The translations under genes were made by a program, and so were the position numbers. From positions 1,632,001 to 1,696,000 of the forward strand of contig OZ219753.1 in assembly GCA_964291315.2 (NCBI GenBank): 64,000 nt of DNA. The letters run 5' to 3'. Position 1 is the stretch's first letter, and each line of letters begins with the position of its first letter. Below are positions 2,953 through 57,382 of the stretch, piece after piece. The DNA comes from Candidatus Poribacteria bacterium. GTDB taxonomy: Bacteria; Poribacteria; WGA-4E; WGA-3G. Under the pieces are notes generated by a model that saw only the letters and a list, made by a program, of their open reading frames with translations, did no database searches and was not told the origin of the DNA.

Positions 2953-3120
2953 ACCGGGGTTTTAGACAAAGTGATGCGTTCCAGGGAGAGTCTGAACCTG
3001 GACAATGGGCAAGCAAACCGTTTCAGTCAAACAGGGAGCCGATTCTCAAGCCCCGTATTGCGTCTAGGATGGGCCATTTCCTATTGCCGGTGGAGGCCGG
3101 TTTCATGGCATAGAAAAGAT

Positions 3121-42211: not shown

Positions 42212-43049
42212 ATTGCGTTTCTTGAAATAAAAGACCTTGTGCCGAGTTGATATTCTCTTTTGCTAACTGGTAATATTGAGGTAGAATCTCGATGCCGACG
42301 GAGCTTCTTAACAACCTCTGCGCAACCTGACAGGTTGTTCCGGCACCTGCAAATGGATCAAGCACCCAATCATTTTCCTTGGTAAATAGCCTGATAAACC
42401 ATTCGGGCAACGTCTTGGGGAAAACGGCACTGTGTTTTCGATTTCCGGTCTCTGTTGCTAAGTGCAAGACGTTAGTTGGATACGCCATTTTTCGATCCAC
42501 CCAATTTGAAACTTTTTTACCAAATCCACTTCCCACTTTTGATGTATCGCGGCTCTGATCTGTTTCGCTGAGATTTTTTAATCTTTTGTCGCTCCAATCT
42601 CCCATCGGTACCATAACCGCCTCTTGATACATATTGAATTTTCTAGTTTTATTGAACTGCAAACATCTTTCCCAGGCATCTCTAAACCTGTTCGGCCATT
42701 TACCCGGATAGCAGTTTTTCTTATGCCAGACAAATTCCTCTGTCCACAGCCACCCCTGCTTTTTCATCTCAAGGATCAAGTCTATCACATAGGTGTGTCG
42801 TTCTCCATTAACCGCCTGCTCTTTGATATTTAGAATAAAGGTACCAGGCGGCTTGAGGACCCTTAAAAGTTGTCCAGCACGAGGCATAAACCAATCAACA
42901 TATTCATCGGGACTGATCCCACCGTATGTTTTAGATCTGCGGTCAGCATACGGCGGCGAGGTCATAATTAGGTCAAACGAATCGGGCTCAAAATCGGCGA
43001 GTACCTCTAAACAGTCCCCAAGGTAAAGATCTGTCTCTATTTTTTTCAT
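42180..43049 (-). CDS. beta-class DNA methyltransferase (SPPY, likely N4C)
   Basis: TSPPY, HSAVFP, LDPFAGAGTT; overlaps the REase start. Confidence 0.92.
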   Translation of the reverse strand: MKKIETDLYLGDCLEVLADFEPDSFDLIMTSPPYADRRSKTYGGISPDEYVDWFMPRAGQLLRVLKPPGTFILNIKEQAVNGERHTYVIDLILEMKKQGWLWTEEFVWHKKNCYPGKWPNRFRDAWERCLQFNKTRKFNMYQEAVMVPMGDWSDKRLKNLSETDQSRDTSKVGSGFGKKVSNWVDRKMAYPTNVLHLATETGNRKHSAVFPKTLPEWFIRLFTKENDWVLDPFAGAGTTCQVAQRLLRSSVGIEILPQYYQLAKENINSAQGLLFQETQYETYHPKRDH

Positions 43050-43162
43050 TGATGGAAAACCTTTCAACTGCCTACTATTGGAGATTTACAGATGGATTGT
43101 GTCAATCCTAGCTGATAGGATACTGTATTGGATTAAAAAAGTCAAGTTAGACCTGATTTCAG

Positions 43163-43921
43163 TTATGGCAATTCCTTAGATGTTAAGAAAGCATAGGGAT
43201 CAATACCTTGGCCTTCAGGTGAGTTGATATCGATTAAATCTATAGACGGTGGTGGAAGGTCGAAAATGCCTCTTTTTATCCAAACCCCGGCAGGACCAAA
43301 GAAATGAGAAATATACATCTGTTTCGTTCCATCAGATGCGATCTCTTCATCCCACTCAACGTAGAGTGTATTTGTATAGTGCGGGCGAACTCTACCCGTA
43401 TCATCGATAGAACCTCCCTCAAAATTTTGCACACCTTGCCGCCAGAGTTTGACGAGAACATGATCGATTAACTTATGCTCGAGAGACCAGTTAACTTGAC
43501 GCTCTGCCGGTTGATCCCAATACGGCATGAGTGGATACCCTTCAGGAGTTGTTTTGAAGTCCGCCGTCTCAGGTATATCCGCTTCTAAGGGAATATCCGG
43601 CATTTCTGTAGACACCATAAAGTGCGCGTCGTCTACAGGCATCACGTTCGCCTCCGCTGCCACAGTTTCAGGTGATTTGAGATCTTCGATTGTCGGTACA
43701 TCCGCCTGTGTTACGGTGTTAAGCTCTGGTTGCTCCACTTTCCGTCCACTTTGAACCGGAAATGTGGGTTTTATTTTTCGCAGAGTCTCCATTGTCTGCT
43801 CGACCTCTCTTTCAGTCGCGCGTTTGACGTGCGTCAGATAGAGAGAACCTCCTAGAACAACCATCAAAAAGAAAGCGGTGCCTGCAAGAATTGCTCGGTT
43901 TGTGAGAAGATCACGAAGCAT
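43163..43921 (-). CDS. array paralog D: TM anchor + acidic linker + conserved C-domain
   Basis: MLRDLLTNRAILAG..., VLVKLWRQG...P.Y..TLYVEWD...GIDPYAFL. Confidence 0.8.
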   Translation of the reverse strand: MLRDLLTNRAILAGTAFFLMVVLGGSLYLTHVKRATEREVEQTMETLRKIKPTFPVQSGRKVEQPELNTVTQADVPTIEDLKSPETVAAEANVMPVDDAHFMVSTEMPDIPLEADIPETADFKTTPEGYPLMPYWDQPAERQVNWSLEHKLIDHVLVKLWRQGVQNFEGGSIDDTGRVRPHYTNTLYVEWDEEIASDGTKQMYISHFFGPAGVWIKRGIFDLPPPSIDLIDINSPEGQGIDPYAFLTSKELP

Positions 43922-43960
43922 ACTCTACCTCCTAGTTTGTCTTGACTATAAATCATATAT

Positions 43961-43976
43961 AGCAAGTTTCGTGCCA
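43961..43976 (-). promoter_or_regulatory. sigma54 -24/-12 promoter
   Basis: TGGCACGAAACTTGCT on the minus strand, perfect TGGCAC-N5-TTGC, ~40 bp before ATG. Confidence 0.9.
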
Positions 43977-44166
43977 ATGCCCTGAGGAATAGTATATTCT
44001 GAAGGGAAATCCCGGATGTCCGTAGGGATGCCTTCACCAACAGAGCCGCTCAAACATACACTCCTATAAGGTCTACTCATATGATCAGAAGTGTTCACTG
44101 TTTTCGAAAAAATTGCTACAGTGGAGAGAATCACAGGTGGGTTCGAGTGCTACCCTCTTGGTTATC

Positions 44167-44200
44167 TGCAAAAATTGTAGTTTGACACGCAAAAATTGCG
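44167..44200. promoter_or_regulatory. 2 palindromic boxes (putative bEBP UAS), 21-bp period
   Basis: TGCAAAAATTGTA at 44167, CGCAAAAATTGCG at 44188. Confidence 0.7.
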
Positions 44201-44268
44201 TTACGGGGTATCTGTGCGGCTTAGTCTCATTTTTTCCGCGGAAAAAGAGCCTCTGAAATTTCATGGTG

Positions 44269-45036
44269 TTACTCTCCTTTTCTCGGCAAGTCGAGAAAAG
44301 CGTACGGGTCGATGCCCCCATCCGGAAATTCATAAACCGTTAGATGTGGCGGGAATATACCTTTGTGAAGATCATAACTATCATCTGTGGTCGGAGACGT
44401 TAGCACACGTTGAACGTACGGCTTACCGTCTGCTCCGAGATTATCCGCCCATTTAATATAAACCACGTCATCTATGATGGGGTAAATGAGGTTATACGTG
44501 TTATTACGGACAGCACCGACAGTGCGAATTCCCTGATTCCATAACGCAATCCGGGTCCTGATCACCAACTCACTATACAGTTCCATTCCGTGAACATTAT
44601 CCCAAATATCTTGATCAGGATAATCTGGTGGTATTTCGGGATATGGTCCGAAGCCGAAGGGCGAGACTCCGTAAGGTGCAGCCTCATTTTCTGTTTCACT
44701 TGCCTCCGCAAAAAACGTTTCCAATACATCCTCTGTAGCACTGATCTCAGCCTCATCTATGAACGCTGCTGTCCGATCGGTTATCGCTTTCATGTTATCG
44801 GTTTCCATGAACGTTTCTTCTTCACCAAGGATCTCCATTTGTGTAGAGGCATCAGCATTCTGTGCGATGTCTGTCTTTTTACTCTTTTCGAAGTAACGGA
44901 GCATTTGCTTGGTTTGTGCGAGTTCGGCTTCACCGGTGCGCCTGACCTGCCAAGTGTAGAGCTGCACACCCGCAAAAACAAGAATAAAGAGAACAACACC
45001 CGCAAGCAGCACGCGGATTGGATTGAAGCGTTGCAT
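44269..45036 (-). CDS. array paralog B4 (B-type N-terminus, A-like C-domain)
   Basis: Start MQRFNPIR after AAGGAGG; VSPFGFGPYPEIPPDYP...IALWNQG...GGIDPYAFL. Confidence 0.82.
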   Translation of the reverse strand: MQRFNPIRVLLAGVVLFILVFAGVQLYTWQVRRTGEAELAQTKQMLRYFEKSKKTDIAQNADASTQMEILGEEETFMETDNMKAITDRTAAFIDEAEISATEDVLETFFAEASETENEAAPYGVSPFGFGPYPEIPPDYPDQDIWDNVHGMELYSELVIRTRIALWNQGIRTVGAVRNNTYNLIYPIIDDVVYIKWADNLGADGKPYVQRVLTSPTTDDSYDLHKGIFPPHLTVYEFPDGGIDPYAFLDLPRKGE

Positions 45037-45049
45037 GTGTGTGCCTCCT

Positions 45050-45814
45050 TTACTTGAGATTAAGAAACGTGTAGGGTTCAATCCCGCCCTCCGCATAAGG
45101 GATGACCGTGATGCCCGGCGGAATGATGCCGTTATCAAAATCATCCTCATAGCGCGCCATACTTCCTGAACTGAGAAGTTCTGTGATATATGGCACAGGC
45201 GTGCCATCTTCATCAATATAGTGATCCCACCTGACATAAACTGTGTTTGGATAGAGCGGGTAAACAAGCCCGTCTTCCATCGCCGCTCCCTCGGTTTGCT
45301 TGCCTTGTTTCCATAACTTGATACAGACTCTTTCCATTAATTCCCACCTTCGTGCGCGTTCGGAACTGAATTCGTAGAGGTTCTCTGCGTGATCCCAGAG
45401 GTTCGAATTTGGATACCCGGGTGGTATCTCGGGATATGGCCCGAATCCGAAGGGCGAGACGCGCGGCTTTTCCGGGGTCTCTTCCACTGTGTCGTCGGGT
45501 AAGAGTCCTGCTCCCACATCAAGAGCGTAGGAAGTTTCCCTCTGTAGCAACGACACTGCTGTTTCAGGCACTATTTGCGGGTTATCCGCATCCAAGGCTA
45601 GGGGTGCGGCGCTATCGGTATCTGTGGGAGACTGGGCATCTTGTGAGGTGTGTGCTTCTCCCCTTTCAAGCTGCTGTATTATCTGCTCTGAGCGTGCCAG
45701 TTCCGCTGCGGTTTGGCTGCGGACATGCCAACTATACAGCAGGCTGCTAACAACCAGCACGAAAAAGAGACCTCCGGCAAGCACCGCGCGGGTTGTAAAA
45801 AGGTCACGGAACAT
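45050..45814 (-). CDS. array paralog A4
   Basis: MFRDLFTT...VSPFGFGPYPEIPPGYP...VCIKLWKQG...GGIEPYTFLNLK. Confidence 0.85.
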   Translation of the reverse strand: MFRDLFTTRAVLAGGLFFVLVVSSLLYSWHVRSQTAAELARSEQIIQQLERGEAHTSQDAQSPTDTDSAAPLALDADNPQIVPETAVSLLQRETSYALDVGAGLLPDDTVEETPEKPRVSPFGFGPYPEIPPGYPNSNLWDHAENLYEFSSERARRWELMERVCIKLWKQGKQTEGAAMEDGLVYPLYPNTVYVRWDHYIDEDGTPVPYITELLSSGSMARYEDDFDNGIIPPGITVIPYAEGGIEPYTFLNLK

Positions 45815-45876
45815 ATTTTACCTCCACCTTCGTCTCACTAGACTCTTAATCAGCAGCGTTTATTGGACGAACGTTC

Positions 45877-46956
45877 CTATTCATCCATGCTAATATTAAA
45901 TTCGAAATGTCCCTTTTGGTAGCGGCCTGTGTCAGCATCACAGAGGTGCAGCGTGGCAAAGCGACTCGCAACGAGGAGATGTTTCTCGTCTTGAGAGAAC
46001 TGCGCGGCAGCAACATCATCTGTTTTCTTTCCTGTCGTATATTTTTCACGTTCGTCGACAGGTGTGTAGAAGTGCTTCAGTTTTTCGCCGGTCTCGACAT
46101 CCCAGAGCAGTATTGTCTTATCTTGGCTAGCAGTGATAAGTGTGTGTCCTTCTGACGAAAATGCGATGTCCCGGATTTCACCAATATGCCCTTCAAGGCT
46201 CTGCTTGAGCATACCGGTCTTGACATCCCACAGACGGACGGTGTGCTCCCATTCACCTCCGCTGGCAAGGGTGTTTCCATCGGGTGAAAAGATAAGATGA
46301 TTAACAGAACCTAAGTCTCTGCTATCCGCATGTAACTCTTCCCCGGTGTTCGTGTCCCACAGCCGGAGGTTCCCGCCCGCACTTGCAAGGATGCTACCGT
46401 CGGGTGAGAATGCAACTGCGTTTACCGCGCTCGAATGTTTAAAGCTTCTGATATAGCTACCGCTACTCAACTCCCACAAATGCACGCTCCAACCTTTGCC
46501 TGTGATAGCAAGTTTTGTGTTGTGCGGTGAAAAAGCAATGGCTTTAATTGTGTGTGAGTGTTTAGTGGGCGTGCCGATCGAGGTGCCTGTTGCGGTTTCC
46601 CAGATATAAACGCTGTTTCCATGGGCACTAGCGATGAGCCGCGAATCCATTGAGAATGTCAATGCACTTTGTGGTATTATCGGCAGCCCTTCACTCTTCT
46701 CGCGTGTGCGCGTTTTTATGAACTGTGAGACGGCTTCGCCCGTCTGTGTATCGTAGATGTAGATGCCCGTGTACATTCGCACGGCGATATGTTTGCCGTT
46801 TGGTGAAATTTTGATGTTTAAGGGGCGTGCCGCTGCCCCAGTTGATAACAGCAAGAGACTCGGAATGAAGACGATTGGCAGGTAGAGAAGCCGCGTGCTT
46901 TTCTTCCTTTTCTTCAAAAAGATTACACTTAGCAAAGCAGTCAATGTAGTTTTCAT
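45877..46956 (-). CDS. secreted WD40 repeat protein occupying the cargo slot
   Basis: AVAFSPDG..LASAG..LRLWD repeats, GH...IRDIAFS; signal-like LLLLSTGAAA. Confidence 0.9.
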   Translation of the reverse strand: MKTTLTALLSVIFLKKRKKSTRLLYLPIVFIPSLLLLSTGAAARPLNIKISPNGKHIAVRMYTGIYIYDTQTGEAVSQFIKTRTREKSEGLPIIPQSALTFSMDSRLIASAHGNSVYIWETATGTSIGTPTKHSHTIKAIAFSPHNTKLAITGKGWSVHLWELSSGSYIRSFKHSSAVNAVAFSPDGSILASAGGNLRLWDTNTGEELHADSRDLGSVNHLIFSPDGNTLASGGEWEHTVRLWDVKTGMLKQSLEGHIGEIRDIAFSSEGHTLITASQDKTILLWDVETGEKLKHFYTPVDEREKYTTGKKTDDVAAAQFSQDEKHLLVASRFATLHLCDADTGRYQKGHFEFNISMDE

Positions 46957-46965
46957 GAAAAACTC

Positions 46966-47751
46966 CTATTTTTCGGTATTTGTAAGAAAAGTTTCGGGAT
47001 CATACCCCGCTGTTTCTATATCAACAAATCTTATGTCTGGATACAATTCTGGCAGTCGACCGGATAACATTTCCTCCGGCGTAAAAGCAGGGGATTGTGC
47101 TCCAAGCATTGACTTTGGAACCGGAACCATCCGGGGATTCTCATCGGAACCAACATTCTCTTCATCCCACCGAACGTAAATGACATCCATATAGAGCGGA
47201 TAGACCCTCTCGTTATTATCTCTAAAGATACCGTTTACGAAGCCACGGTCTCCTTGGTTCCACAGCTTGATTAGAACCCGATAGATCATCTCGTGATCAC
47301 GCATGTCGCCCTTCTGATAATTCGGAAATTCTATCCATACAGGCGTAAGATTCTCTGGAAAGTCCGCAGGGACCTCTGGAAAATCAGCCGCTACAATGCC
47401 CTCAATCTCGGTCTGAAGCGCAGACGATTCTTCAGAAACCGCGGTCTCGGGACCTTTAGCAGCATTATCCTGAGGTAACGCAGTCCTTTCTGTTGACATC
47501 GTTTCGGTGCTGTTGCCTAAGAGCGCCTCCTCTGTTTTTCCAGAGCTCCCCATTTGTGTAGTTATGTCAGCCCCTTGTGCGGTGTGTGTCTCTTTTTTCT
47601 TCTCGAAGTGGTGTAGCACTCGCTTGGTTTGTGTGAGTTCGGCTTCACCGGTGTGCCTGACCTGCCAAGTGTAGAGCTGCACACCCGCAAAAACAAGAAT
47701 AAAGAGAACAAAACTCGCAAGCAGCACGCGGTTTAGATTGAAGCGTTGCAT
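46966..47751 (-). CDS. array paralog B3
   Basis: Start MQRFNLNR after AAGGAGG; FPEVPADFP...VLIKLWNQG...VYPLY..VIYVRWD. Confidence 0.85.
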   Translation of the reverse strand: MQRFNLNRVLLASFVLFILVFAGVQLYTWQVRHTGEAELTQTKRVLHHFEKKKETHTAQGADITTQMGSSGKTEEALLGNSTETMSTERTALPQDNAAKGPETAVSEESSALQTEIEGIVAADFPEVPADFPENLTPVWIEFPNYQKGDMRDHEMIYRVLIKLWNQGDRGFVNGIFRDNNERVYPLYMDVIYVRWDEENVGSDENPRMVPVPKSMLGAQSPAFTPEEMLSGRLPELYPDIRFVDIETAGYDPETFLTNTEK

Positions 47752-47764
47752 GTGTGTGCCTCCT

Positions 47765-48538
47765 TTACTTGAGATTAAGAAACGTGTAGGGTTCAATCCC
47801 GCCCTCCGCATAAGGGATGACCGTGATGCCCGGTGGAATGATGCTATTATCAAAATCATCATCATAGCGCGCCATATCTCCTGAACCCAGAGTCTCTGCA
47901 ATATATCTCACAGGCGTGCCCTCTTCATCAATGTATTGGTCCCATCTGACATAAACTGTGTTTGGATAGAGCGGGTAAACGAGCCCGTTTTCCATCGCTA
48001 CACTCTCGGCTTGCTTGCCTTGTTTCCATAACTTGATACAAACTCTTTCCCTTAATTCCCAATTTCGTGCGCGTTCGGGACTGAATTCATAGAGGCTCTC
48101 TGCAAGATCCCAGAGGTCCGGATCCGGATACCCGGGTGGTATCTCGGGATATGGCCCGAAGCCGAAGGGCGAGACGCGCGTCTCTTCCGGGGTCTCTTGC
48201 ACTGTGTCGTCGGGTAAGGGTCCCGCTCCCACATCAAGCGGGTCGGGCGTTTCAGCCTGTAGCAACGGCATTTCTGTTTCAGGCACTGTTTGCAGGGTAT
48301 CCGTATCCAAGGCTACGGGTACGCCGCCGGCGCTATCGGTATCTGTGGAAGGCTCTGCATCGTGTGAGGTGTGTGCTTCTCCCCTTTCAAGCTGCTGTAT
48401 CACCTGCACTGAGCGTGCCAGTTCCGCTGCGGTCTGGCTGCGGATGTGCCAACTATACAGCAGGCTGCTGGCAACAACCAGCACAAAGAAGAGACCGCCG
48501 GCGAGGATCGCGCGGGTTGTGAAGAGGTCACGGAACAT
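47765..48538 (-). CDS. array paralog A3
   Basis: Near-identical to A1/A2/A4. Confidence 0.85.
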   Translation of the reverse strand: MFRDLFTTRAILAGGLFFVLVVASSLLYSWHIRSQTAAELARSVQVIQQLERGEAHTSHDAEPSTDTDSAGGVPVALDTDTLQTVPETEMPLLQAETPDPLDVGAGPLPDDTVQETPEETRVSPFGFGPYPEIPPGYPDPDLWDLAESLYEFSPERARNWELRERVCIKLWKQGKQAESVAMENGLVYPLYPNTVYVRWDQYIDEEGTPVRYIAETLGSGDMARYDDDFDNSIIPPGITVIPYAEGGIEPYTFLNLK

Positions 48539-48596
48539 ATTTTACCTCCACCTTCGTCTCACTAGACTCTTAATCAGCAGCGTTTATTTGTGTGTT

Positions 48597-48643
48597 AAAG
48601 AACACTTTTGATACCGTCTATTTTGGTACCAAAAGTGTTCTTT
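48597..48643. terminator. long inverted repeat after small secreted gene
   Basis: AAAGAACACTTTTG-ATACC...GGTAC-CAAAAGTGTTCTTT; identical copy at 54266-54312. Confidence 0.6.
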
Positions 48644-48872
48644 GCAAGTTCTTCTTAATACCGCCTTGCCAAGACATGGTAAACTCGAAGACCATCGTCT
48701 CGTAAAGATGACATGCGGCATGCCCTTCAGTTTGAGTCGTAATCATGGTCCTGTTGGAACTTGTCATCTCCATCATAACCATTCACGTAAGCATATGCGG
48801 TTCCTGAATTATGGTATGGACCGGCATCATACGATTCGGATAAACGACGAATTGTGTTGCTTTTTTCGCGAA

Positions 48873-48903
48873 AGGGGTACAGACGCAGGTCCGTACCCCT
48901 ACA
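48873..48903 (-). repeat. GTAG-type REP-like palindrome
   Basis: Minus strand GTAG-GGGTAC-GGAC-CTGC-GTCT-GTACCC-CT. Confidence 0.55.
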
Positions 48904-48931
48904 ATTTCAGCGTCTATAAATTGTTCCTTTT

Positions 48932-49462
48932 TTATTGGTACAAATATGAAGGATCATCTGTCAACATAGCGTCTGCCATTTTATTCGCGCGCTTGGGTGT
49001 ATCTTCCCTCGCCCATTTAGACTTGAGCATCTCGTCGTGTGCTTCTTGCCAAGCGCCGGCTAAAATATGCGCACGCGTTTTAGTAAAACCACAGAGTTTC
49101 GTCCGACCGAGCTGGAACGCCATATTGATGAGCACTTCTTGCCGAACGTGTGAAATTGAATGCCATCGTGAGGGACTTCCCCCTTGACAGATATAGAACA
49201 TGGCATCGAGTTTTGCCGTATCTAAATCATCATAAAAAATCGCATCAATTGCAGCCCCTGAGAGAGGACCAACATCTGAGGGTAAAGCTGTTGGAACTTC
49301 AACCCTTTCCCCAGTCGCTAATTCATAGGCATTAGGTTTTACCACGTTTGAAAAGAGGTGTCCAATACCGATGGTCCAGTTACCCAGATGATCTCGGTAT
49401 TTGCTATATCTGAGACCTTCCCATTGCTCAAGGCATCTCCTGAGTCGTCTGTCGTCAGCTAT
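48932..49462 (-). CDS. T4-type (GH24) lysozyme, apparent ATA start
   Basis: Frame upstream of GTG 49345 reads LEQWEGLRYSKYRDHLGNWTIGIGHL (E/D/T triad); C-terminal LINMAFQLG...ML.SKWA..TPKRA; AAAGGA ~8 nt before ATA 49462. Confidence 0.85.
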   Translation of the reverse strand: MADDRRLRRCLEQWEGLRYSKYRDHLGNWTIGIGHLFSNVVKPNAYELATGERVEVPTALPSDVGPLSGAAIDAIFYDDLDTAKLDAMFYICQGGSPSRWHSISHVRQEVLINMAFQLGRTKLCGFTKTRAHILAGAWQEAHDEMLKSKWAREDTPKRANKMADAMLTDDPSYLYQ

Positions 49463-49474
49463 TGTATTTATCCT

Positions 49475-49957
49475 TTATAGATGTGAGTGAGTTATGAATA
49501 GTTGTGTACGGAGTTGAGGAATACTGTCATAGAAATGATCGTGAACCCAGTCTCCGTTAGAACTTCGCCAGTATCGAGATGTCGAAAGTGTATTTAGCGT
49601 AGAATGGGTGTGATCTAAACCAATCACAGTGCCGAAGGTTTCCGGCTCCGTATCAGGTTTATCGAGTCGCCAGTGTCCATGTGTGAGCGTTATACTACTC
49701 TCACTATGTTTATGTGTGTGCGTCCCTTGTCTATCATATTGAAAGTCATAATCTGCTTCCCAAACAGGTGTGTAGGTGCGTTTCCCTCGATGCACCCCGC
49801 CTTCATGTGTGTGTTTGTGAAGCTCACGGTATTCAAATTCAAGGTATTTAACTTCAGGTTCAGGTTCAAGTTTCGGCTTACCAAACCACCAACCCAAGGA
49901 AAAACTACAAGCGAGTCCCAGGACAAAGCACGGGATAATCATTTTTTTACCAAACAT
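49475..49957 (-). CDS. membrane-anchored His-x-His-rich hypothetical protein
   Basis: N-terminal hydrophobic helix; HKHTH, HTHKH, HGH, HTH, HDH and HSH motifs; start uncertain. Confidence 0.65.
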   Translation of the reverse strand: MFGKKMIIPCFVLGLACSFSLGWWFGKPKLEPEPEVKYLEFEYRELHKHTHEGGVHRGKRTYTPVWEADYDFQYDRQGTHTHKHSESSITLTHGHWRLDKPDTEPETFGTVIGLDHTHSTLNTLSTSRYWRSSNGDWVHDHFYDSIPQLRTQLFITHSHL

Positions 49958-50232
49958 GTTCGGCACCCCTTCACTACGAATAGTTCGGAAAACACAATCT
50001 CATTGCCGAAAGACCCGGATTCGTTATCAGCATTATCAACCTCAGCCCAAGTTGAGAAAGTGCCATTTTTAAGTCCAAAGTTACCTAGGACAGCCAAAGC
50101 TGTATTCTTCTTGATAAAGGGCAATCTGATCCGAAGCGTCGATGTCGTTGCCCCATAAGAATATACCATAGTAGCAATAGCCAAAGAGAGCGCAATTAGC
50201 AAAGCAGGCAATGTAGTTTTCATGAGAAACTC

Positions 50233-51018
50233 CTATTTTTCGGCATTTGTAAGAAAGGTTTCGGGATCATACCCCGCTGTCTCTATATCAACAAATCTTA
50301 TATCTGGATACAATTCTGGCAGTCGACCGGACAATCTTTCCTCCATCGTAAAACCAGGAGATTGTGCTCCAAGCATTGACTTTGGAACCGGAACCATCCG
50401 GGGATTCTCATCGGAACCAACATTCTCTTCATCCCATCGAACATAAATGACATCCATATAGAGTGGATAGACCCGCTCGTTATTATCTCTAAAGATACCG
50501 TTTACGAAGCCACGGTCTCCTTGGTTCCACAGCTTGATTAGAACCCGATAGATCATCTCGTGATCACGCATGTCGCCCTTCCGATAATTCGGAAATTCTA
50601 TCCATACAGGCGTAAGATTCTCTGGAAAGTCCGCGGGGACCTCTGGAAAATCAGCCGCTACAACGCCCTCAGTCTCGGTCTGAAACGCAGACGATTCTTC
50701 AGAAACCGCGGTCTCGGGACCTTTAGCAGCATTATCCTGAGGTAACGCAGTCCTTTCTGTTGACATCGTTTCGGTGCTGTTGCCTAAGAGCGCCTCCTCT
50801 GTTTTTCCAGAGGGCCCCAGTTGTGTTGTTATGTCGGCACCTTGTGCGGTGTGTGTCTCTTTTTTCTTCTCGAAGTGGCTTAGCAATTGCTTGGTTTGTG
50901 CGAGTTCGGCTTCACCGGTGCGCCTGACCTGCCAAGTGTAGAGCTGCACACCCGCAAAAACAAGAATAAAGAGAACAACACTCGCAAGCAGCACGCGGGT
51001 TGGATTGAAGCGTCGCAT
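50233..51018 (-). CDS. array paralog B2
   Basis: Start MRRFNPTR after AAGGAGG; near-identical to B1/B3. Confidence 0.85.
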   Translation of the reverse strand: MRRFNPTRVLLASVVLFILVFAGVQLYTWQVRRTGEAELAQTKQLLSHFEKKKETHTAQGADITTQLGPSGKTEEALLGNSTETMSTERTALPQDNAAKGPETAVSEESSAFQTETEGVVAADFPEVPADFPENLTPVWIEFPNYRKGDMRDHEMIYRVLIKLWNQGDRGFVNGIFRDNNERVYPLYMDVIYVRWDEENVGSDENPRMVPVPKSMLGAQSPGFTMEERLSGRLPELYPDIRFVDIETAGYDPETFLTNAEK

Positions 51019-51031
51019 GTGTGTGCCTCCT

Positions 51032-51805
51032 TTACTTGAAATTAAGAAACGTGTAGGGTTCAATCCCGCCCTCTTCATAAGGGATGACCGTGATGCCCGG
51101 TGGAATGATGCCGTTATCAAAATCATCGTTATAACGTATTGTACTTGGTGGACCGAGAATTTCTGCAATATATCTCACAGGTGTGCCGTCTGCATCAATG
51201 TATTGGTCCCATCTGAGGTAAACTGTGTTTGGATAGCAGGGGTAAACAAGCCCGTCTTCCATCGCAGCGCTTTCGGCTTGTTTGCCTTGTTTCCACAACT
51301 TGATACAAACTCTTACGATCAATTCCCAGTTTCGTGCTCGTTCGGGACTGGCTTCGTAGAGGCTCTCTGCAAAATCCCAGAGGTCCGGATCCGGATACCC
51401 GGGTGGTATTTCGGGATATGGCCCGAAGCCGAAGGGCGAGACGCGCGTCTCTTCCGGGGTCTCTTGCCCTGTGTCGTCGGGTAAGAGCCCTGCTCCCACA
51501 TCAAGCGGGTCGGGCGTTTCGCCTTGTAGCAACGGCATTGTCGTATCGGGCATTGTTTGCAGGGTATCTGCATCCAAGGCTACGGGTACGCCTCCTGCGC
51601 TATCGATATCTGTGGAAGGTTCTGCATCCTGTGGGGTGTGCGCCTCTCCTCTCTCGAGCTGCTCTATCACCTGCTCTGAGTGTGCCAGTTCCGCTGCGGT
51701 TTGGCTGCGGACGTGCCAACTATACAGCAGACTGCTGACGACAACCAGCACAAAGAAGATACCGCCAGCAAGTACCGCGCAGGTTGTGAAAAGGTCACGG
51801 AACAT
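51032..51805 (-). CDS. array paralog A2
   Basis: MFRDLFTT..., first gene after a sigma54 promoter. Confidence 0.85.
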   Translation of the reverse strand: MFRDLFTTCAVLAGGIFFVLVVVSSLLYSWHVRSQTAAELAHSEQVIEQLERGEAHTPQDAEPSTDIDSAGGVPVALDADTLQTMPDTTMPLLQGETPDPLDVGAGLLPDDTGQETPEETRVSPFGFGPYPEIPPGYPDPDLWDFAESLYEASPERARNWELIVRVCIKLWKQGKQAESAAMEDGLVYPCYPNTVYLRWDQYIDADGTPVRYIAEILGPPSTIRYNDDFDNGIIPPGITVIPYEEGGIEPYTFLNFK

Positions 51806-51844
51806 AATTTACCTCCTCGTTTGTCTTGACTATAATCCCTATAT

Positions 51845-51860
51845 AGCAAGTTTCGTGCCA
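51845..51860 (-). promoter_or_regulatory. sigma54 -24/-12 promoter
   Basis: TGGCACGAAACTTGCT on the minus strand. Confidence 0.9.
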
Positions 51861-52052
51861 ATGCCCTGAGGAATAGCATATTCTGAAGGGAAATCCCGGA
51901 TGTCCGTACGGATCCCTTCACCAACAGAGCCTCCCAAACATACACCGGTATAAGGTCTATTCACACGATCAGAAGCGGTCACTTTTTTCCGAAAAAAATT
52001 GCTACGGTGGAGAAAATCACGAGTGGGTTCGAGTGCTACCCTCTTGGCTACC

Positions 52053-52128
52053 TGCAAAAATTGTAGATTGGCACGCAAAATTTGCGGGTTAAGACGCAAA
52101 AATTGTAGTTTGATACGCAAAAAATGCG
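52053..52128. promoter_or_regulatory. 4 palindromic boxes (putative bEBP UAS), 21-bp period
   Basis: YGCAAAAWWTGYR at 52053, 52074, 52095, 52116. Confidence 0.75.
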
Positions 52129-52164
52129 TCTCGGGGTATCTGTGCGGTTGCGCGTCATTATGTC

Positions 52165-52193
52165 TTGCGGAAAAAAGCGGGGTGTGCTATCCT
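52165..52193 (+). promoter_or_regulatory. possible sigma70 promoter of the bEBP gene
   Basis: TTGCGG-17 bp-TATCCT with extended TG. Confidence 0.35.
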
Positions 52194-52234
52194 CTCGTTA
52201 TACTGAATCTTTCCACAGGAGCAAGGGAGGTATC

Positions 52235-53383
52235 ATGAGCATGCAACCAACATTTATTGAATTGCCATCAGAACCCATGCAAAGTATTTATAGGACAGTT
52301 CGGCAGGTGGCAACATCAGACCTCTCGTTTTTCATTACGGGCGAAACTGGAGTCGGTAAGGAAGCAGTGGCACAATACATTCACAAAAGTGGCCCACGCC
52401 GAAATAAACCTTTGGTGGCCATAAATTGTGGGAGATTCACCACCGAGCTCTTGCAAAGTGAGCTCTTTGGACATGAAGAAGGGGCGTTCACTGGCGCAAT
52501 CCGTTCTCGCCGCGGGGCATTTGAAACCGTAAACGACGGCATTCTCTTCTTAGATGAGATTACCGAGATGCCCTTAGAAGCACAGAAAACGTTCCTCCGC
52601 GTCCTAGATACAAAAACCTTCACGCGGATCGGCGGAAATGTGAGCTTGACCACAGATTTTCAGGTTATCTCCGCAACAAACAGGAACATCGGAAAAGATG
52701 TGCTTGAAACAAAATTTAGAGCAGACCTCTATTACCGCCTCATGGATATGAGCTTTCACATCCCACCCCTCCGAGAGCGGCCAGAAGATATCGCCCCTTT
52801 AGTTGGCGCTTTTATTCATGAGTTCAGCCCTGGGCGCGGAAAAAGCGCAATAAAGATTACCGCAGAGGCACTCACTCGCCTTGAAAAAGCAGCGTGGCCC
52901 GGGAATATCCGGCAACTGAGAAGTACTGTTAGAACAGCCGTCGCCCTCACTACAACCGATAAACTTGAAGTCAAAGATTTTCCGTATAATTTTTTCACCG
53001 CCCCAGGGTTAGAAAACCCTGTCTCCGCTCCGGACAGAGCAGATAGCACGGCTGTGCATACAGAATTCACCCAGACGATCCCCTTCGTCTGGCATACGCT
53101 CCCTGAGAAAATCCAACAGGCGGTTGTGCATGAGCTTTCGGAGCATCTGCCGGAACTCTCGGGTAATGTCCCAACCGCTAATACTGCACCGACAGACGAG
53201 AACCCGGAGCTTCTCAACATAAAAGATATGGATCAACAGGAAATTCTACAGGCGGTTGCCCAGAAGCGCATTGCAGAATATGCCTCGCTCAATGAGGCAG
53301 CACATTCATTAGGGATCGATGTTCGGACCCTTCAGAAACATGCACACTGGCAAGCACAAGATGATACTGCAGAGGGAACTTAA
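52235..53383 (+). CDS. sigma54-dependent enhancer-binding protein lacking an N-terminal sensory domain
   Basis: GETGVGKE, SELFGHEEGAFTGA, FLDEI, FRADLYYRL, WPGNIRQL; C-terminal HTH-like AAHSLGIDVRTL. Confidence 0.93.
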   Translation: MSMQPTFIELPSEPMQSIYRTVRQVATSDLSFFITGETGVGKEAVAQYIHKSGPRRNKPLVAINCGRFTTELLQSELFGHEEGAFTGAIRSRRGAFETVNDGILFLDEITEMPLEAQKTFLRVLDTKTFTRIGGNVSLTTDFQVISATNRNIGKDVLETKFRADLYYRLMDMSFHIPPLRERPEDIAPLVGAFIHEFSPGRGKSAIKITAEALTRLEKAAWPGNIRQLRSTVRTAVALTTTDKLEVKDFPYNFFTAPGLENPVSAPDRADSTAVHTEFTQTIPFVWHTLPEKIQQAVVHELSEHLPELSGNVPTANTAPTDENPELLNIKDMDQQEILQAVAQKRIAEYASLNEAAHSLGIDVRTLQKHAHWQAQDDTAEGT

Positions 53384-53430
53384 AATTTAGCACTTTGGCG
53401 GTCAGAGAGCTATCAATATCAATATCTTCT

Positions 53431-54207
53431 CTACTTGAGGTTAAGGAAGGTGTAGGGTTCAATCCCGCCCTCCGCATAAGGGATGACCGTGATGCCCGGT
53501 GGAATGATGCTATTATAAAAATCATCGTCATAGCGCGCCATATCTCCTGAACCTAGAGTATCTGAAATATATCTCACAGGCGTGCCGTCTGCATCAATGT
53601 ATTGGTCCCATCTGACATAAACTGTGTTTGGATAGCAGGGGTAAACAAGCCCGTCTTCCATCGCAGCGCTTTCGGCTTGTTTGCCTTGTTTCCACAACTT
53701 GATACAAACTCTGTGGGTTAATTCCCACCTTCGTGCGCGTTCGGGACTGAATTCATAAAGGCTCTCTGCAAGATCCCAGAGGTCCGGATTCCGATACCCG
53801 GGTGGTATCTCGGGATATGGCCCGAAGCCGAAGGGCGAGACGCGCGTCTCTTCCGGGGTCTCTTGCCCTGTGTCGTCGGGTAAGAGCCCTGCTCCTACAC
53901 CAAGAGCGTCGGGAGTTCCACCCTGTAGCAACGGCACTGCTGTTTCGGACATCGTTTGCAGGGTATCCGCATCCAAGGCTAGGGGTGTCCCTCCGGCGCT
54001 ATTGGTATCTGTGGAAGGTTCGGCATCGTGTGAGGTGTGCGTCACTCTCTTTTTTTCAAGCTGCTGTATCACCTGCACTGTGCGTGCCAGTTCCGCTGCG
54101 GTCTGGCTGCGGATGTGCCAACTATACAGCAGGCTGCTGAAAACAACCAGCACAAAGAAGAGACTTCCGGCGAGGATCGCGCGGGTTGTGAAAAGGTCAC
54201 GGAACAT
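53431..54207 (-). CDS. array paralog A1
   Basis: Near-identical to A2-A4. Confidence 0.85.
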   Translation of the reverse strand: MFRDLFTTRAILAGSLFFVLVVFSSLLYSWHIRSQTAAELARTVQVIQQLEKKRVTHTSHDAEPSTDTNSAGGTPLALDADTLQTMSETAVPLLQGGTPDALGVGAGLLPDDTGQETPEETRVSPFGFGPYPEIPPGYRNPDLWDLAESLYEFSPERARRWELTHRVCIKLWKQGKQAESAAMEDGLVYPCYPNTVYVRWDQYIDADGTPVRYISDTLGSGDMARYDDDFYNSIIPPGITVIPYAEGGIEPYTFLNLK

Positions 54208-54265
54208 ACTTTACCTCCACCTTCGTCTCACTAGACTCTTAATCAGCAACGTTTATTTGTGTGTT

Positions 54266-54312
54266 AAAGAACACTTTTGATACCGTCTATTTTGGTACCA
54301 AAAGTGTTCTTT
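54266..54312. terminator. long inverted repeat after small secreted gene
   Basis: Identical to 48597-48643. Confidence 0.6.
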
Positions 54313-54398
54313 GCAAGTTCTTCTTAATGCCACCTTGCCAAGATACAGTAGTAAACTCGAAGACCATCGTCTCGTAAAGATGACATGCGGCATGCCCT

Positions 54399-54746
54399 TC
54401 AGTTTGAGTCGTAATCATGGTCCTGTTGGAACTTGTCATCTCCATCATAACCATTCACGTAAGCATATGCGGTTCCTGAATTATGGTATGGACCGGAATC
54501 ATACGATCTGGAAAACACAATCTCATTGCCGAAAGACCCGGATTCGTTATCAGCATTATCAACCTTAGCCCAAGTTGCGAAACTGCCATTTTTAAGTCCA
54601 AAGTTACCTAGGATAGCCAAAGCTGTATTCTTCTTGATAAAGGGCAATCTGACCCGAAGCGTCGATGTAGTTGCCCCATAAGAATATACCATCGTAGCAA
54701 CAGCCAAAGAGAGCGCAATTAGCAAAGCGGTCAATGTAGTTTTCAT
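54399..54746 (-). CDS. small secreted protein S1 (115 aa, Gly/Asn/Asp/Tyr-rich, likely beta-rich)
   Basis: Signal MKTTLTALLIALSLAVATMVYS; AGGAG RBS; duplicated at 48.7-50.2 kb. Confidence 0.8.
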   Translation of the reverse strand: MKTTLTALLIALSLAVATMVYSYGATTSTLRVRLPFIKKNTALAILGNFGLKNGSFATWAKVDNADNESGSFGNEIVFSRSYDSGPYHNSGTAYAYVNGYDGDDKFQQDHDYDSN

Positions 54747-54755
54747 GAGAAACTC

Positions 54756-55544
54756 CTATTTTTCGGTATTTGTAAGAAAAGTTTCGGGATCATACCCCGC
54801 TGTCTCTATATCAACAAATCTTATGTCTGGATACAATTCTGGCAGTCGACCGGATAACATTTCCTCCGGCGTAAAAGCAGGGGATTGTGCTCCAAGCATT
54901 GACTTTGGAACCGGAACCATCCGGGGATTCTCATCGGAACCAACATTCTCTTCATCCCATCGAACGTAAATGACATCCATATAGAGTGGATAGACCCGCT
55001 CGTTATTATCTCTAAAGATACCGTTTACGAAGCCACGGTCTCCTTGGTTCCACAGCTTGATTAGAACCCGATAGATCATCTCGTGATCACGCATGTCGCC
55101 CTTCCGATAATTCGGAAATTCTATCCATATAGGTGTAAGATTCTCTGGAAAGTCCGCAGGGACCTCTGGAAAATCAGCCGCTACAATGCCCTCAGTCTCG
55201 GTCTGAAACGCAGACGATTCTTCAGAAACCGCGGTGTCGGGACTTTTAGCAGCATTATCCTGAGGTACAGTAGCCCTTTCTGTTAACACTGTTTCGGTGC
55301 TGTTGCCTAAGAGCGCCTCCTCTGTTTTTCCAGAGCTCCCCAATTGTGTAGTAGTGTCAGCCCCTTGTGGGGTGTGTGTCTCTTTTTTCTTCTCGAAGTG
55401 GCGTAGCACTCGCTTGGTTTGTGCCAGTTCGGCTTCACCGGTGTGCCTGACATGCCAAGTGTAGAGCTGCACACCCGCAAAAACAAGAATAAAGAGAACA
55501 AAACTCGCAAGCACCGCGCGGGTTGTGAAAAGGTCACGGAACAT
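54756..55544 (-). CDS. array paralog B1 (A-type first ~12 codons, B-type body)
   Basis: MFRDLFTTRAVL joined to ASFVLFILVFAGVQLYTW. Confidence 0.85.
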   Translation of the reverse strand: MFRDLFTTRAVLASFVLFILVFAGVQLYTWHVRHTGEAELAQTKRVLRHFEKKKETHTPQGADTTTQLGSSGKTEEALLGNSTETVLTERATVPQDNAAKSPDTAVSEESSAFQTETEGIVAADFPEVPADFPENLTPIWIEFPNYRKGDMRDHEMIYRVLIKLWNQGDRGFVNGIFRDNNERVYPLYMDVIYVRWDEENVGSDENPRMVPVPKSMLGAQSPAFTPEEMLSGRLPELYPDIRFVDIETAGYDPETFLTNTEK

Positions 55545-55582
55545 ACTTTACCTCCTCGTTTGTCTGACTATAACCCCTATAT

Positions 55583-55598
55583 AGCAAGTTTCGTGCCA
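55583..55598 (-). promoter_or_regulatory. sigma54 -24/-12 promoter
   Basis: TGGCACGAAACTTGCT on the minus strand. Confidence 0.9.
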
Positions 55599-55790
55599 AT
55601 GCCCTGCAGAGTAGTGTATTTTGGCGGAATTCCGGTATGTCTGTAGGGGTTCCCCGCACCAACAGAGCCGCACAAACATACACCGGTATAAGGTCTACTC
55701 ACACGATCAGAAGCGTTCACTTTTTTCCGAAAAAAATTGCTACAGTGGAGAGAATCATAGGTGAGTTCGAGTGCTATCCGCTTGGCAATC

Positions 55791-55845
55791 TGCAAAAATT
55801 GTAGATTGGCACGCAAAATTTGTAGGTTAACCCGCAAAAATTGCA
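55791..55845. promoter_or_regulatory. 3 palindromic boxes (putative bEBP UAS), 21-bp period
   Basis: Boxes at 55791, 55812, 55833. Confidence 0.72.
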
Positions 55846-55924: not shown

Positions 55925-57382
55925 TTATAGCAGGGTGCGCTGCCGAATCTCGTGCCAAGGCCCGGTAATCGCCAACGTAATCCCGTGACTCTGAATGTTT
56001 ATAAACAGCGTTGTGCCGTCAGGTGAGAACGTTGCCCCTGCTAGTTCGGACATATTGCCAGCGTTCCGTGCGAATTTATAAAGGTGCCCTTCGGGCGTTA
56101 CGCCGACTAGAAATTCTTCATTAGGCCCATCTTCACAGATGATCAGATCCCCCCATGGTGTGACCGTTAGGTTATCGGCGTTTTCCATGAGATTGCTGTC
56201 GTTTGGCTCAATGAACAGTTGTAGCGTCCCCGGTTGCTGCGCCTCGCGGCTTGTTCCTTCGTAAGGGCTGGGTGTATATTTCCAGATTTGCCCTTTGTAC
56301 AGCGTTCCGCCATTCGTGCAAGCGATATAAAGTGCGCCGGTGTCGGCTTCACTGCCGTACCATATCCCTTCGCCGCGTGCGAATCGTGCTGCCTCTTTGT
56401 CTTGATTGCCCTGTATGCGGAGGTCGTCCTTCGGGGATTCTACGTTCTCAATGTCCACCCATTCGACTGTGAGTGTTTCTCCGACGGGTATGGGGTTGTA
56501 TGTCCACGGCAATATCTTTTTCATGCGGCTCTGCCAGTTTCGGGTATCCGCGCTCTTCAGGTCTCGGATCTTCAGCGCCTGAAGTTTCCCGCCTGCCGCG
56601 AGTTCGCCCGGTTTTTCTGGGATAAAACGATAGATTAAACCATCATTTCTGTCTTCGGTTTGATACACAATCCCACTCTTAGGATCAACAGCCACAGCTT
56701 CATGATTGAAACGTCCCATCGCTTTCAGAGGGACAGGGTCAGCCAATCCTATTTCAGTAGAAACAGGTACCTCAAAATTGTAGCCGTGATCCGCTTCGTA
56801 AGTGTCTTCTTGCTTCTGCACAGTCTCCTCACAGGTTATCCATGTGTTCCAAGGAGTTGGACCGCCGGCACAATTGCGGATCGTTCCTGCAAGACTCAGA
56901 AAATGTTTTTCCAGTTTTTGTGTTTTTGTGTCATAGACGAGCGTGGTTGTGCCGCCGAGGCAGGGGAGCTCGCCCGACCCAGGATCATAGAGCTTATCAC
57001 GTGCCGCGGGTTCAATTTTTTCGTTATTCCATCCAAACGGGCCAACTGCTTTGTCACCCGATTTTAATTCATGATTGCGAATAAGGACAGTTTTGCCGTT
57101 AGGGCCAGGGAAAGCCGCCATACCGTCGTGGGCACCCGGCACCCAAAGTCCGTCGTCCATTTCTTCACCCGTTCTGGAGAAGGCGTGAGCCGTAAACCCT
57201 TCAGGCAGATCAAGGAGCCGATTCGGACTCGGCTTGAACACATAGGGCGGTTCAGGGCCAAAACCTGGTACCTTCTGAATCAAGGTCCGGCTACACCCTG
57301 AAAATCCGAGACTGACTGCTACAGATGCTGTGGCGAGTGTGCTAGTGTGTAGAAACTGTCGTCGAGATACTCTCTGTTTCAT
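55925..57382 (-). CDS. phoX: PhoX-family alkaline phosphatase (DUF839), Tat-exported lipoprotein
   Basis: SRRQFL Tat motif, FSGC, LIRNHE, NCAGG.TPW.TW.TCEE, MGRFNHEA, ARGEG, DNL, ELAG. Confidence 0.88.
   Translation of the reverse strand: MKQRVSRRQFLHTSTLATASVAVSLGFSGCSRTLIQKVPGFGPEPPYVFKPSPNRLLDLPEGFTAHAFSRTGEEMDDGLWVPGAHDGMAAFPGPNGKTVLIRNHELKSGDKAVGPFGWNNEKIEPAARDKLYDPGSGELPCLGGTTTLVYDTKTQKLEKHFLSLAGTIRNCAGGPTPWNTWITCEETVQKQEDTYEADHGYNFEVPVSTEIGLADPVPLKAMGRFNHEAVAVDPKSGIVYQTEDRNDGLIYRFIPEKPGELAAGGKLQALKIRDLKSADTRNWQSRMKKILPWTYNPIPVGETLTVEWVDIENVESPKDDLRIQGNQDKEAARFARGEGIWYGSEADTGALYIACTNGGTLYKGQIWKYTPSPYEGTSREAQQPGTLQLFIEPNDSNLMENADNLTVTPWGDLIICEDGPNEEFLVGVTPEGHLYKFARNAGNMSELAGATFSPDGTTLFINIQSHGITLAITGPWHEIRQRTLL

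Follow-up and report, generated by a model that had tools for sequence, protein, structure and literature searches.

Nine membrane-anchored paralogs in a predicted sigma-54 regulon of Poribacteria: candidate tethers for exported proteins

What do nine paralogous membrane-anchored proteins do when they are encoded together, beside genes for exported proteins and apparently under a transcriptional activator of their own? The question is raised by a tandem array at positions 43163-55845 (minus strand) of a 64,000-nucleotide stretch from a Poribacteria genome, belonging to a sponge-symbiont-type bacterium (GenBank assembly GCA_964291315.2, contig OZ219753.1, positions 1,632,001 to 1,696,000; hereafter the window). 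The genome (G000) comprises 4.4 Mb in four contigs, and the window (G000:C4:1632001-1696000) lies within a 3.26-Mb contig; G, C and L denote genomes, contigs and loci of relatives, respectively, and f1 to f11 the families of Poribacteria. In minus-strand order, the array reads sigma-54 promoter (P54)-B1-S1-hairpin-A1, then a bacterial enhancer-binding protein (bEBP) gene on the plus strand, then P54-A2-B2-S2-hairpin-A3-B3-WD40-A4-B4 with an interrupted S2, and finally P54-D, where A, B and D are the anchor proteins and S is a small exported protein. This order and the broken S2 had been claimed in an earlier reading of the sequence (the original prediction), and the open reading frames (ORFs) and their coordinates confirmed both. 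The anchor family proved to be real, large, lineage-restricted and without detectable relative, and the adjacency of its genes to those of exported proteins points to a tether or escort role.

The anchor family and its C-terminal domain

A full-length alignment of the nine anchor proteins, all encoded on the minus strand, had 25 invariant columns, and identities to B1 were 33-90%. The proteins share a short positive N-terminus and, as had been predicted, a transmembrane (TM) anchor, an acidic linker and a C-terminal domain (C-domain); the linker is disordered and the C-domain ~140 aa long. Four groups were distinguished, namely the A type (A1, 258 aa, 53431..54207; A2, 257 aa, 51032..51805; A3, 257 aa, 47765..48538; A4, 254 aa, 45050..45814), the B type (B1, 262 aa, 54756..55544; B2, 261 aa from the ATG at 51018, 50233..51018, starting 13 nt past the A2 stop; B3, 261 aa, 46966..47751), B4 (44269..45036), a separate subfamily with L028a as its sister in the tree, and D (252 aa, 43163..43921), the most divergent paralog. 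A1-A4 are 78-87% identical to A1, and B1-B3 are 89-90% identical among themselves; B1 is chimeric at its 5' end, with the first ~13 residues and the promoter A-like and the remainder B-like. At the DNA level, the copies differ by 4-40%. The ratio of nonsynonymous to synonymous substitution rates (dN/dS) among A1-A4 and B1-B3 was 0.11-0.48 in the C-domain and 0.33-1.27 in the linker, and the low C-domain values indicate that the copies are maintained by purifying selection and are not decaying repeats.

A full-length AlphaFold2 model built from an 89-sequence alignment contained a helix at residues 3-57, corresponding to the TM segment and continuing beyond the membrane, a disordered stretch at residues 57-115 (predicted local distance difference test, pLDDT, <50) and a confidently modelled C-domain (pLDDT 94-97). 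The mean net charge of 89 members was +1.9 on the N-terminal side of the TM segment and -0.07 within the 15 residues that follow the segment, a bias that fits the positive-inside rule, so an N-in/C-out topology is predicted. In f3 genomes, the C-domain occurs in proteins of 168-196 aa behind signal-peptide-like N-termini ending in G-C (lipobox-like). The charge bias and these signal-peptide variants in relatives support a location of the C-domain outside the cytoplasm, consistent with the periplasmic or surface exposure proposed earlier for the A and B proteins. A class III signal peptide of type IV pilins, which has G at -1, F at +1 and E at +5, was absent; the N-terminus MFRDL...R runs straight into the hydrophobic helix without a G-F...E motif.

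All nine proteins match the C-domain profile SPFGFGPYPExP ... ELxxRVxIKLWxQG ... VYP ... YV.W ... GIDPYTFL. Since fold searches with the full-length model matched only its long N-terminal helix, the C-domain was modelled by itself from a 42-sequence alignment drawn from genome loci (pLDDT 94.1; predicted template modelling score 0.85). The model comprises an extended N-terminal segment, two helices (26-36 and 38-56), four strands (63-102) and, after a further helix (104-114), a short tail made of a strand and a helix. Residues of the types S, G, P, E, W, R, Y and F are conserved, and none of the types H, C and D is; this pattern suggests a binding or structural role more than an enzymatic one.

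The original prediction could not assign the C-domain to a known family, and this held in wider sequence and structure searches. Pfam returned no family for 13 of the 19 proteins scanned, including the nine paralogs, S1, S2 and two ORFs of the S2 insert; NCBIfam gave no significant match for the paralogs; PADLOC and PHROGs matched none of A1, B1, D and S1, and PADLOC none of 13 proteins scanned. The best match of the C-domain profile to PDB sequences had an E-value of 0.16, and the C-domain model reached at best E 0.10 in Foldseek against PDB and E 0.025 against BFVD, with no usable match in the ESM Atlas. In the VIA wide search, none of 48,161 chains attained Z>=5, and the best (Z 4.8, root-mean-square deviation 2.4, 52 residues) covered a helical hairpin only. 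Among 120 homolog matches listed, eight carried the public name "hypothetical protein [Candidatus Poribacteria bacterium]" and the others were nameless. In the openly accessible literature on Poribacteria, to which the literature search was confined, with subscription journals outside its scope, nothing related to the array or the anchor family was found. The C-domain is therefore supported as belonging to no known family in Pfam, NCBIfam, PADLOC, PHROGs, PDB, BFVD or the ESM Atlas, and comparison of the model with PDB, BFVD and the ESM Atlas raises the strong suspicion that it represents a new fold.

Members of the anchor family were detected in 140 of 176 genomes of the phylum (f1, 105/111; f2, 10/11; f3, 24/29; f4-f11, 0/24), and many genomes held at least 15 scored candidates each. 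The family is thus limited to three families of one Poribacteria order, where it is multi-copy. A search of 1.84 billion representatives with the C-domain profile yielded 574 clusters (50% identity) at E<=1e-3 and 505 at 1e-10. Among 150 clusters listed, 149 carried the C-domain at the C-terminal end, or close to it, in a protein of ~140-320 aa; the exception, P0248 (481 aa), has a signal peptide, a C-domain with a duplicated terminal motif and a ~300-aa extension without Pfam match. Beyond the window, the array genome contains five more full-length copies and one split copy. A hidden Markov model of the first 50 residues retrieved 23 ORFs from this genome, 15 with the C-domain and eight without, indicating that the anchor is a module combined with several C-terminal domains. 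Seven of the eight are tandem 234-aa paralogs with a coiled-coil-like C-terminal part (G000:C3:302238-311649), which flank an ORF of 1292 aa (306173-310051).

Two further observations concern the surroundings of family genes. At L014 (G000:C4:3184589-3188344), a family paralog (locus positions 1501-2256) stands ~200 nt beyond the end (1302) of a 16S rRNA gene, and part of another 16S copy (model positions 874-1520) follows at 2486-3134. This arrangement would stem from an insertion with duplication at the rRNA locus or else from an oddity of the assembly. In addition, genes of a second family recur beside anchor-family genes (e.g., G000:C4:3088081-3088836, C4:2181461-2182117, C3:200116-200832 and L053:10793-11395); their products, of ~200-250 aa, carry a TM segment at the N-terminus and, after it, a motif like Y..D...F...LP.PP.

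Exported neighbours of the anchor genes

A survey of 36 family genes, five from the array genome and 31 from 29 loci of relatives (best matches), revealed that 23 are followed directly by an ORF of 73-198 aa with a hydrophobic N-terminus, which begins -8 to 47 nt downstream; two of the 36 were short of downstream sequence. The link between an anchor and an exported gene directly downstream is thus conserved beyond the array. In five f2 and f3 genomes, 15 of 35 family genes had an exported-type ORF within 200 nt downstream, or 17 at a slightly relaxed hydrophobicity threshold. These partners belong to at least five mutually unrelated families plus singletons, and no significant Pfam domain, toxin domains included, was found in the 17 partners scanned. 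When five partner labels, available for 18 rows, were placed on a tree of 44 C-domains, no more than the minimum of four changes was needed. The anchor tree is therefore congruent with the partner families, as long-term linkage predicts, a pattern that by itself would not prove co-evolution. Outside homologs were few, with two for S1 (word-indexed search) and one for the alpha partner, whose match in the Atlas scored 0.77, under the lead threshold. At L098 (f3), five consecutive anchor-plus-partner cassettes lie downstream of a gene for an extracytoplasmic function (ECF) sigma factor; L100-L103 show P54, then anchors, then PD40 propellers, and such propellers follow anchors in f3.

Within the array, S1 (115 aa, 54399..54746, minus strand) has a signal-peptide-like N-terminus and starts 9 nt after B1. 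A block in G109 (genus g6) offers a reference for this arrangement. Its first gene encodes an anchor of the B type, which shares 43% identity with B1 (E 7e-68), its second an S homolog with 41% identity over the mature part (E 1e-21), and its third a protein whose WD40 propeller is 52% identical to that of the array (E 2e-106) and fused to a family anchor and linker (L055:9096-10349). The array WD40 gene (359 aa, 45877..46956, minus strand) begins with the first ten codons of S and continues into its own hydrophobic segment, as a signal-peptide propeller; its conserved flanks span the B 3' end up to and including the S start on one side and ~50 nt ahead of the next A gene on the other. The repeated cargo slot claimed by the original prediction is better read as the rearranged remains of an ancestral B-S-WD40 trio, with B1-S1 intact, B2-S2 broken by an insert, B3 followed by a propeller gene that starts with S codons, and the A copies partnerless. 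Because G109 fuses WD40 to an anchor, the propeller appears to be meant for membrane tethering by the anchor module, and this fusion is the best indirect support for a tethering role. Glycosyltransferase genes were also observed near family genes (STT3-like, L055:1182-1712; PMT_2-type, L058:12907-14640); that their products glycosylate the S/T/D/E-rich linkers is pure speculation.

The A-type genes have a different history. Their orthologs at L023, L024 and L026 carry a partner of the beta type, intact at L023 and L024; at the array, only a 14-codon remnant (REDIDIDSSLTAKV; 53391..53432, minus strand) follows A1, abutting the 3' end of the convergent bEBP gene. Judged from these orthologs, the A-type copies of the array have apparently lost their own partner.

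S2 retains 79 codons homologous to S1 (49987..50223) before reading into an insert of ~1.1 kb (48844..49986), after which the last ~115 nt of S follow (48727..48843) at 98% DNA identity to the S1 3' end, all on the minus strand. The insert contains a TM-anchored His-rich ORF (49475-49966), for which no homolog was found in 159 genomes of the order, and, separated from it by one in-frame TAA, a T4-lysozyme homolog extending to 48932. The latter matched Pfam (5e-9), a PHROG endolysin (2.7e-13) and T4 lysozyme (T4L) in PDB (4e-16), with residues identical to E11, D20 and T26 of T4L; no ATG, GTG or TTG precedes the catalytic Glu. Lysozymes of relatives have their own ATG, lack a signal peptide and are free-standing endolysin-like genes. 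The lysozyme was considered as a cargo and rejected, as it belongs to an insertion breaking S2 and has neither a signal peptide nor a canonical start. The insert looks like a lysis-cassette-like insertion, possibly a remnant of the holin-endolysin type.

Two hairpins with 19-nt arms and a 9-nt loop follow the S genes (hairpin 1, 54266..54312; hairpin 2, 48597..48643, with identical arms; both minus strand). Their predicted RNA fold has an energy of -27.4 kcal/mol (z -8.4); no U-tract stands behind either, and a simple terminator scan called neither. Neither an Rfam family nor a tRNA was detected in scans of the window. The array is flanked on one side by a type II restriction-modification pair (41471-43067; RE_EcoO109I, E 1.4e-91; N6_N4_Mtase, E 1.3e-43) and on the other by a PhoX phosphatase gene (55925-57382).

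Predicted sigma-54 control of the array

The motif TGGCAC-N5-TTGC occurs three times in the window as an identical 15-mer (TGGCACGAAACTTGC) on the minus strand (0.15 expected; none of 100 shuffles reached three). The three sites stand 54-55 nt ahead of the start codons of B1 (P_B1, 55584..55598; 54 nt from TGGCAC to the ATG), A2 (P_A2, 51846..51860) and D (P_D, 43962..43976). The motif has 29 sites genome-wide, and the identical 15-mer recurs at the related loci L035 and L052 of other genomes. The upstream regions of the three promoters align over ~330 nt, and since the promoters sit in duplicated DNA they are not three independent events.

Each promoter is preceded by a putative upstream activating sequence (UAS) composed of RCAA-W3-TTGY palindromes spaced exactly 21 bp apart, with three at P_B1 (55792..55844, ~195-245 bp upstream of the -24 element), three at P_A2 (52054..52106, between P_A2 and the divergent bEBP gene) and two at P_D (44168..44199). 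Overall, the palindromes lie ~190-245 bp upstream of the promoters, with centres ~197-241 bp upstream of TGGCAC. Eight of the ten matches in the window fall in the three upstream regions (0.99 expected in the window; none of 100 shuffles reached ten). Across the 4.4-Mb genome, there are 71 single sites; only five pairs lie within 45 bp of each other, all at the array promoters. Moreover, triple sites ~190-235 bp upstream of P54 recur together with an orthologous bEBP at L052 (G068, another genus; bEBP ortholog E 3e-184) and at L025 (G115).

The bEBP gene (ORF 52124..53383, plus strand) encodes 419 aa, with the AAA+ domain beginning at residue 49 and no N-terminal sensor or receiver domain. Comparison with orthologs places the likely start at MSMQPTF (52232), ~12 residues before the AAA+ domain, giving a protein of 383 aa. 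It matched Sigma54_activat (PF00158, E 4.9e-61) and AAA_lid_14 (8e-19) in Pfam, and an EEGAFTGA loop is visible in the translation. The rpoN gene is present on the same contig (Sigma54_DBD, E 2.6e-56; G000:C4:3240534-3241004). The self-contained sigma-54 regulon that had been proposed is thus upheld by three identical promoters, a GAFTGA-bearing bEBP, palindrome arrays exclusive to this locus and rpoN elsewhere in the genome. These features support the array as a private sigma-54 regulon of a sensor-less bEBP, with both binding and start sites predicted. Autoregulation of the bEBP is possible, as the P_A2 palindromes lie between P_A2 and its gene.

Among close relatives, 11 of 30 full-length genes (29 loci) had TGGCA[CT]-N5-TTGC within 300 nt upstream, and 11 of these genes lie in loci holding a bEBP. 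The enrichment is large, given that ~0.001 per gene is expected from 29 sites on two strands of 4.4 Mb. Other regulators also adjoin family arrays, including ECF sigma genes (L098:5569-6111, L099:7112-7958, L023:395-976, L054:9975-10568), accompanied at L099 by a short zf-HC2 anti-sigma gene. At L098, a sigma-54 motif precedes the ECF gene, a hint of a possible sigma-54 to ECF cascade.

Proposed role and rival explanations

We propose, with a probability of roughly 0.4, that the anchors face the periplasm and tether or escort the exported proteins encoded with them. The bEBP would bind the palindromes and drive sigma-54 transcription of B1-S1-(A1), of A2 through B4 and of D; in lacking a sensor, it may be controlled by its own level or by some protein partner, like PspF. 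The anchors would insert N-in/C-out, with the C-domain on a flexible tether in the periplasm, and the B-type anchors would hold or escort both S and the WD40 propeller on the outer side of the inner membrane. The least certain step is that each anchor subfamily would work with the exported protein encoded directly downstream.

The proposed architecture is like that of membrane-tethered periplasmic escorts, without homology to them. With lipase chaperones (Lif), the anchors share a signal-anchor, a flexible linker, a periplasmic domain and a gene beside that of an exported client. The Lif fold is all-helical, whereas the C-domain model is of the alpha/beta kind and combines two helices with a four-stranded sheet; the anchors lack Pfam or NCBIfam matches to lipase chaperones, and their clients would be unrelated small proteins and propellers. 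The TM helix, long linker and globular C-domain of ~100-140 aa, with WD40/PD40 (TolB-type repeat) propellers alongside, recall TolA-TolB, but neither Pfam nor NCBIfam gave a TolA or TonB match, neither protein was among the Foldseek (best E 0.10) or VIA (Z 4.8) matches, and no TolQ/R or Pal context was seen at anchor loci. On the regulatory side, the bEBP resembles PspF in consisting only of AAA+ and a C-terminal DNA-binding region and in standing divergent beside a target promoter with the sites between the genes; in both systems the targets include small membrane-associated envelope proteins. It falls, however, below every NCBIfam equivalog cut-off (pspF TIGR02974, 208.6 bits vs 443.55), and the array has no PspA, PspB or PspC homolog, three promoters and nine paralogous targets. 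Clusters of ECF and anti-sigma genes for the envelope are similar in that f3 and some f1 family arrays directly follow an ECF sigma gene, and different in that the present array is under sigma-54 and a bEBP and its anchors have no anti-sigma domain.

Several points weigh against the tether reading and the regulon attached to it. The four A-type copies have no intact partner, and about one-third of homologs lack an adjacent exported ORF. The C-domain core is conserved although the partner families are unrelated, so specific binding would need variable loops. Inheritance of linked genes alone can yield the tree congruence. Contact between an anchor and its neighbour was seen in no experiment or prediction here; a complex prediction for the B1 C-domain with mature S1 (score 0.05, mark 0.32), in which the fold of S1 was itself uncertain, speaks neither for nor against it. 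As for the regulator, HTH_8 was not among the eight Pfam matches (E<=0.01) of the bEBP, so that its putative DNA binding rests on a visible helix-turn-helix-like C-terminal sequence and on the palindromes; a related sensor-less bEBP in L100 matches HTH_8 at 5e-14. Sigma-54 control is also local. Homologs without an S, bEBP or sigma-54 context, which the original prediction would have counted against itself, do occur in part; the motif precedes only those 11 of 30 close and 6 of 35 distant (f2/f3) homologs and none of the five other paralogs of the same genome, some of which have clear sigma-70-like promoters. Likewise, the G109 B-S-WD40 block has no sigma-54 motif, and a sigma-70-like TTGACG-17-TAAAAT is visible there. 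Sigma-54 is therefore one of several regulatory set-ups of the anchor family and does not define it.

Some of these points would fit an envelope-maintenance or stress regulon in which the anchors act alone, as spacers or by binding wall or outer-membrane components, and the exported genes are co-transcribed without being partners. Such a regulon would be consistent with the partnerless A-type copies and homologs, with core motifs that stay identical whatever the neighbour, and with the envelope-stress kind of regulators adjoining the family, i.e., PspF-like bEBPs, ECF sigma factors (L023, L054, L098, L099) and the zf-HC2 anti-sigma. It accounts poorly for the very short anchor-partner gaps (-8 to 47 nt), the congruence of anchor subfamily with partner family, the B-S-WD40 synteny across genera and the WD40-anchor fusion, and no match to Psp or another stress family was obtained in Pfam or NCBIfam; on balance, it appears somewhat unlikely. 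A competition module, with the exported proteins as toxins or bacteriocins, the anchors as periplasmic immunity proteins and the extra copies as orphan immunity genes, is suggested by the tandem arrays, by the variable, fast-evolving exported neighbours and by a lysozyme homolog inside the array. Unrelated toxins, however, normally have unrelated immunity proteins, and here one conserved family stands beside at least five unrelated partner families, which makes immunity the least consistent of the chaperone, anchor and immunity roles first put forward. In addition, the scans of 17 partners with Pfam and of 13 proteins with PADLOC were empty, WD40/PD40 propellers are unlike toxins, and the lysozyme is an S2-breaking insertion without signal peptide or canonical start, with endolysin-like relatives; we regard this module as improbable.

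The anchors could also be the missing input of the sensor-less bEBP, sensing a periplasmic cue, possibly the exported partner, in a regulon made up almost only of such anchored proteins. Yet an N-in/C-out topology leaves ~9 cytoplasmic residues, too few to hold an AAA+ activator, and most family members occur without a bEBP, making a signalling role very improbable. Finally, the array might be a collapse or chimera of strain variants. Short-read contigs from four DNA runs of one study, which possibly include the source sample, break at the repeats; none spans the array, and the gene order is neither confirmed nor contradicted by them. Strain variants were seen at the P_D region and at the border of the array, with 150 different letters replacing the P_D promoter and UAS region in contigs X1 and X2 (window 43950-44243) and an extra 499 letters separating the D stop from the methylase gene in contig X3 (window 43154-43163). 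On the other hand, contig pieces from two runs match the S2 insert and its two junctions without a single difference, the window is part of a 3.26-Mb contig in a genome of four contigs, the copies are divergent (4-40%) and under purifying selection, and comparable bEBP-holding arrays exist in L052, L098 and L099, so the chance of an artefact is almost negligible.

In a broader form of the tether reading, the anchor family would be central to an envelope tethering system found only in Poribacteria and based on a new fold, in which a flexible inner-membrane tether captures or presents variable exported proteins. Eukaryote-like WD40/PD40 propellers would be among its clients, in some genomes fused to the anchor, and cassettes would diversify by duplication and recombination and be switched on by dedicated sigma-54 or ECF regulators. 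This wider picture is unlikely. Since the family occurs in only one part of the phylum, it could conceivably serve as a lineage-specific symbiosis or surface-variation device.

Most lineage-specific genes of uncultivated Poribacteria are blank, and the anchor family is among their most expanded gene sets. Even if the tether reading fails, the module of promoter, UAS and bEBP would still provide a clean, testable case of a sensor-less activator with a private regulon, and its cis-regulatory logic is clear enough for rebuilding in E. coli. If the reading is true, the family would represent a new means by which a Gram-negative-type envelope organises exported proteins, together with a new fold family, and would offer a handle on how WD40/PD40 "eukaryote-like" proteins are deployed in sponge symbionts.

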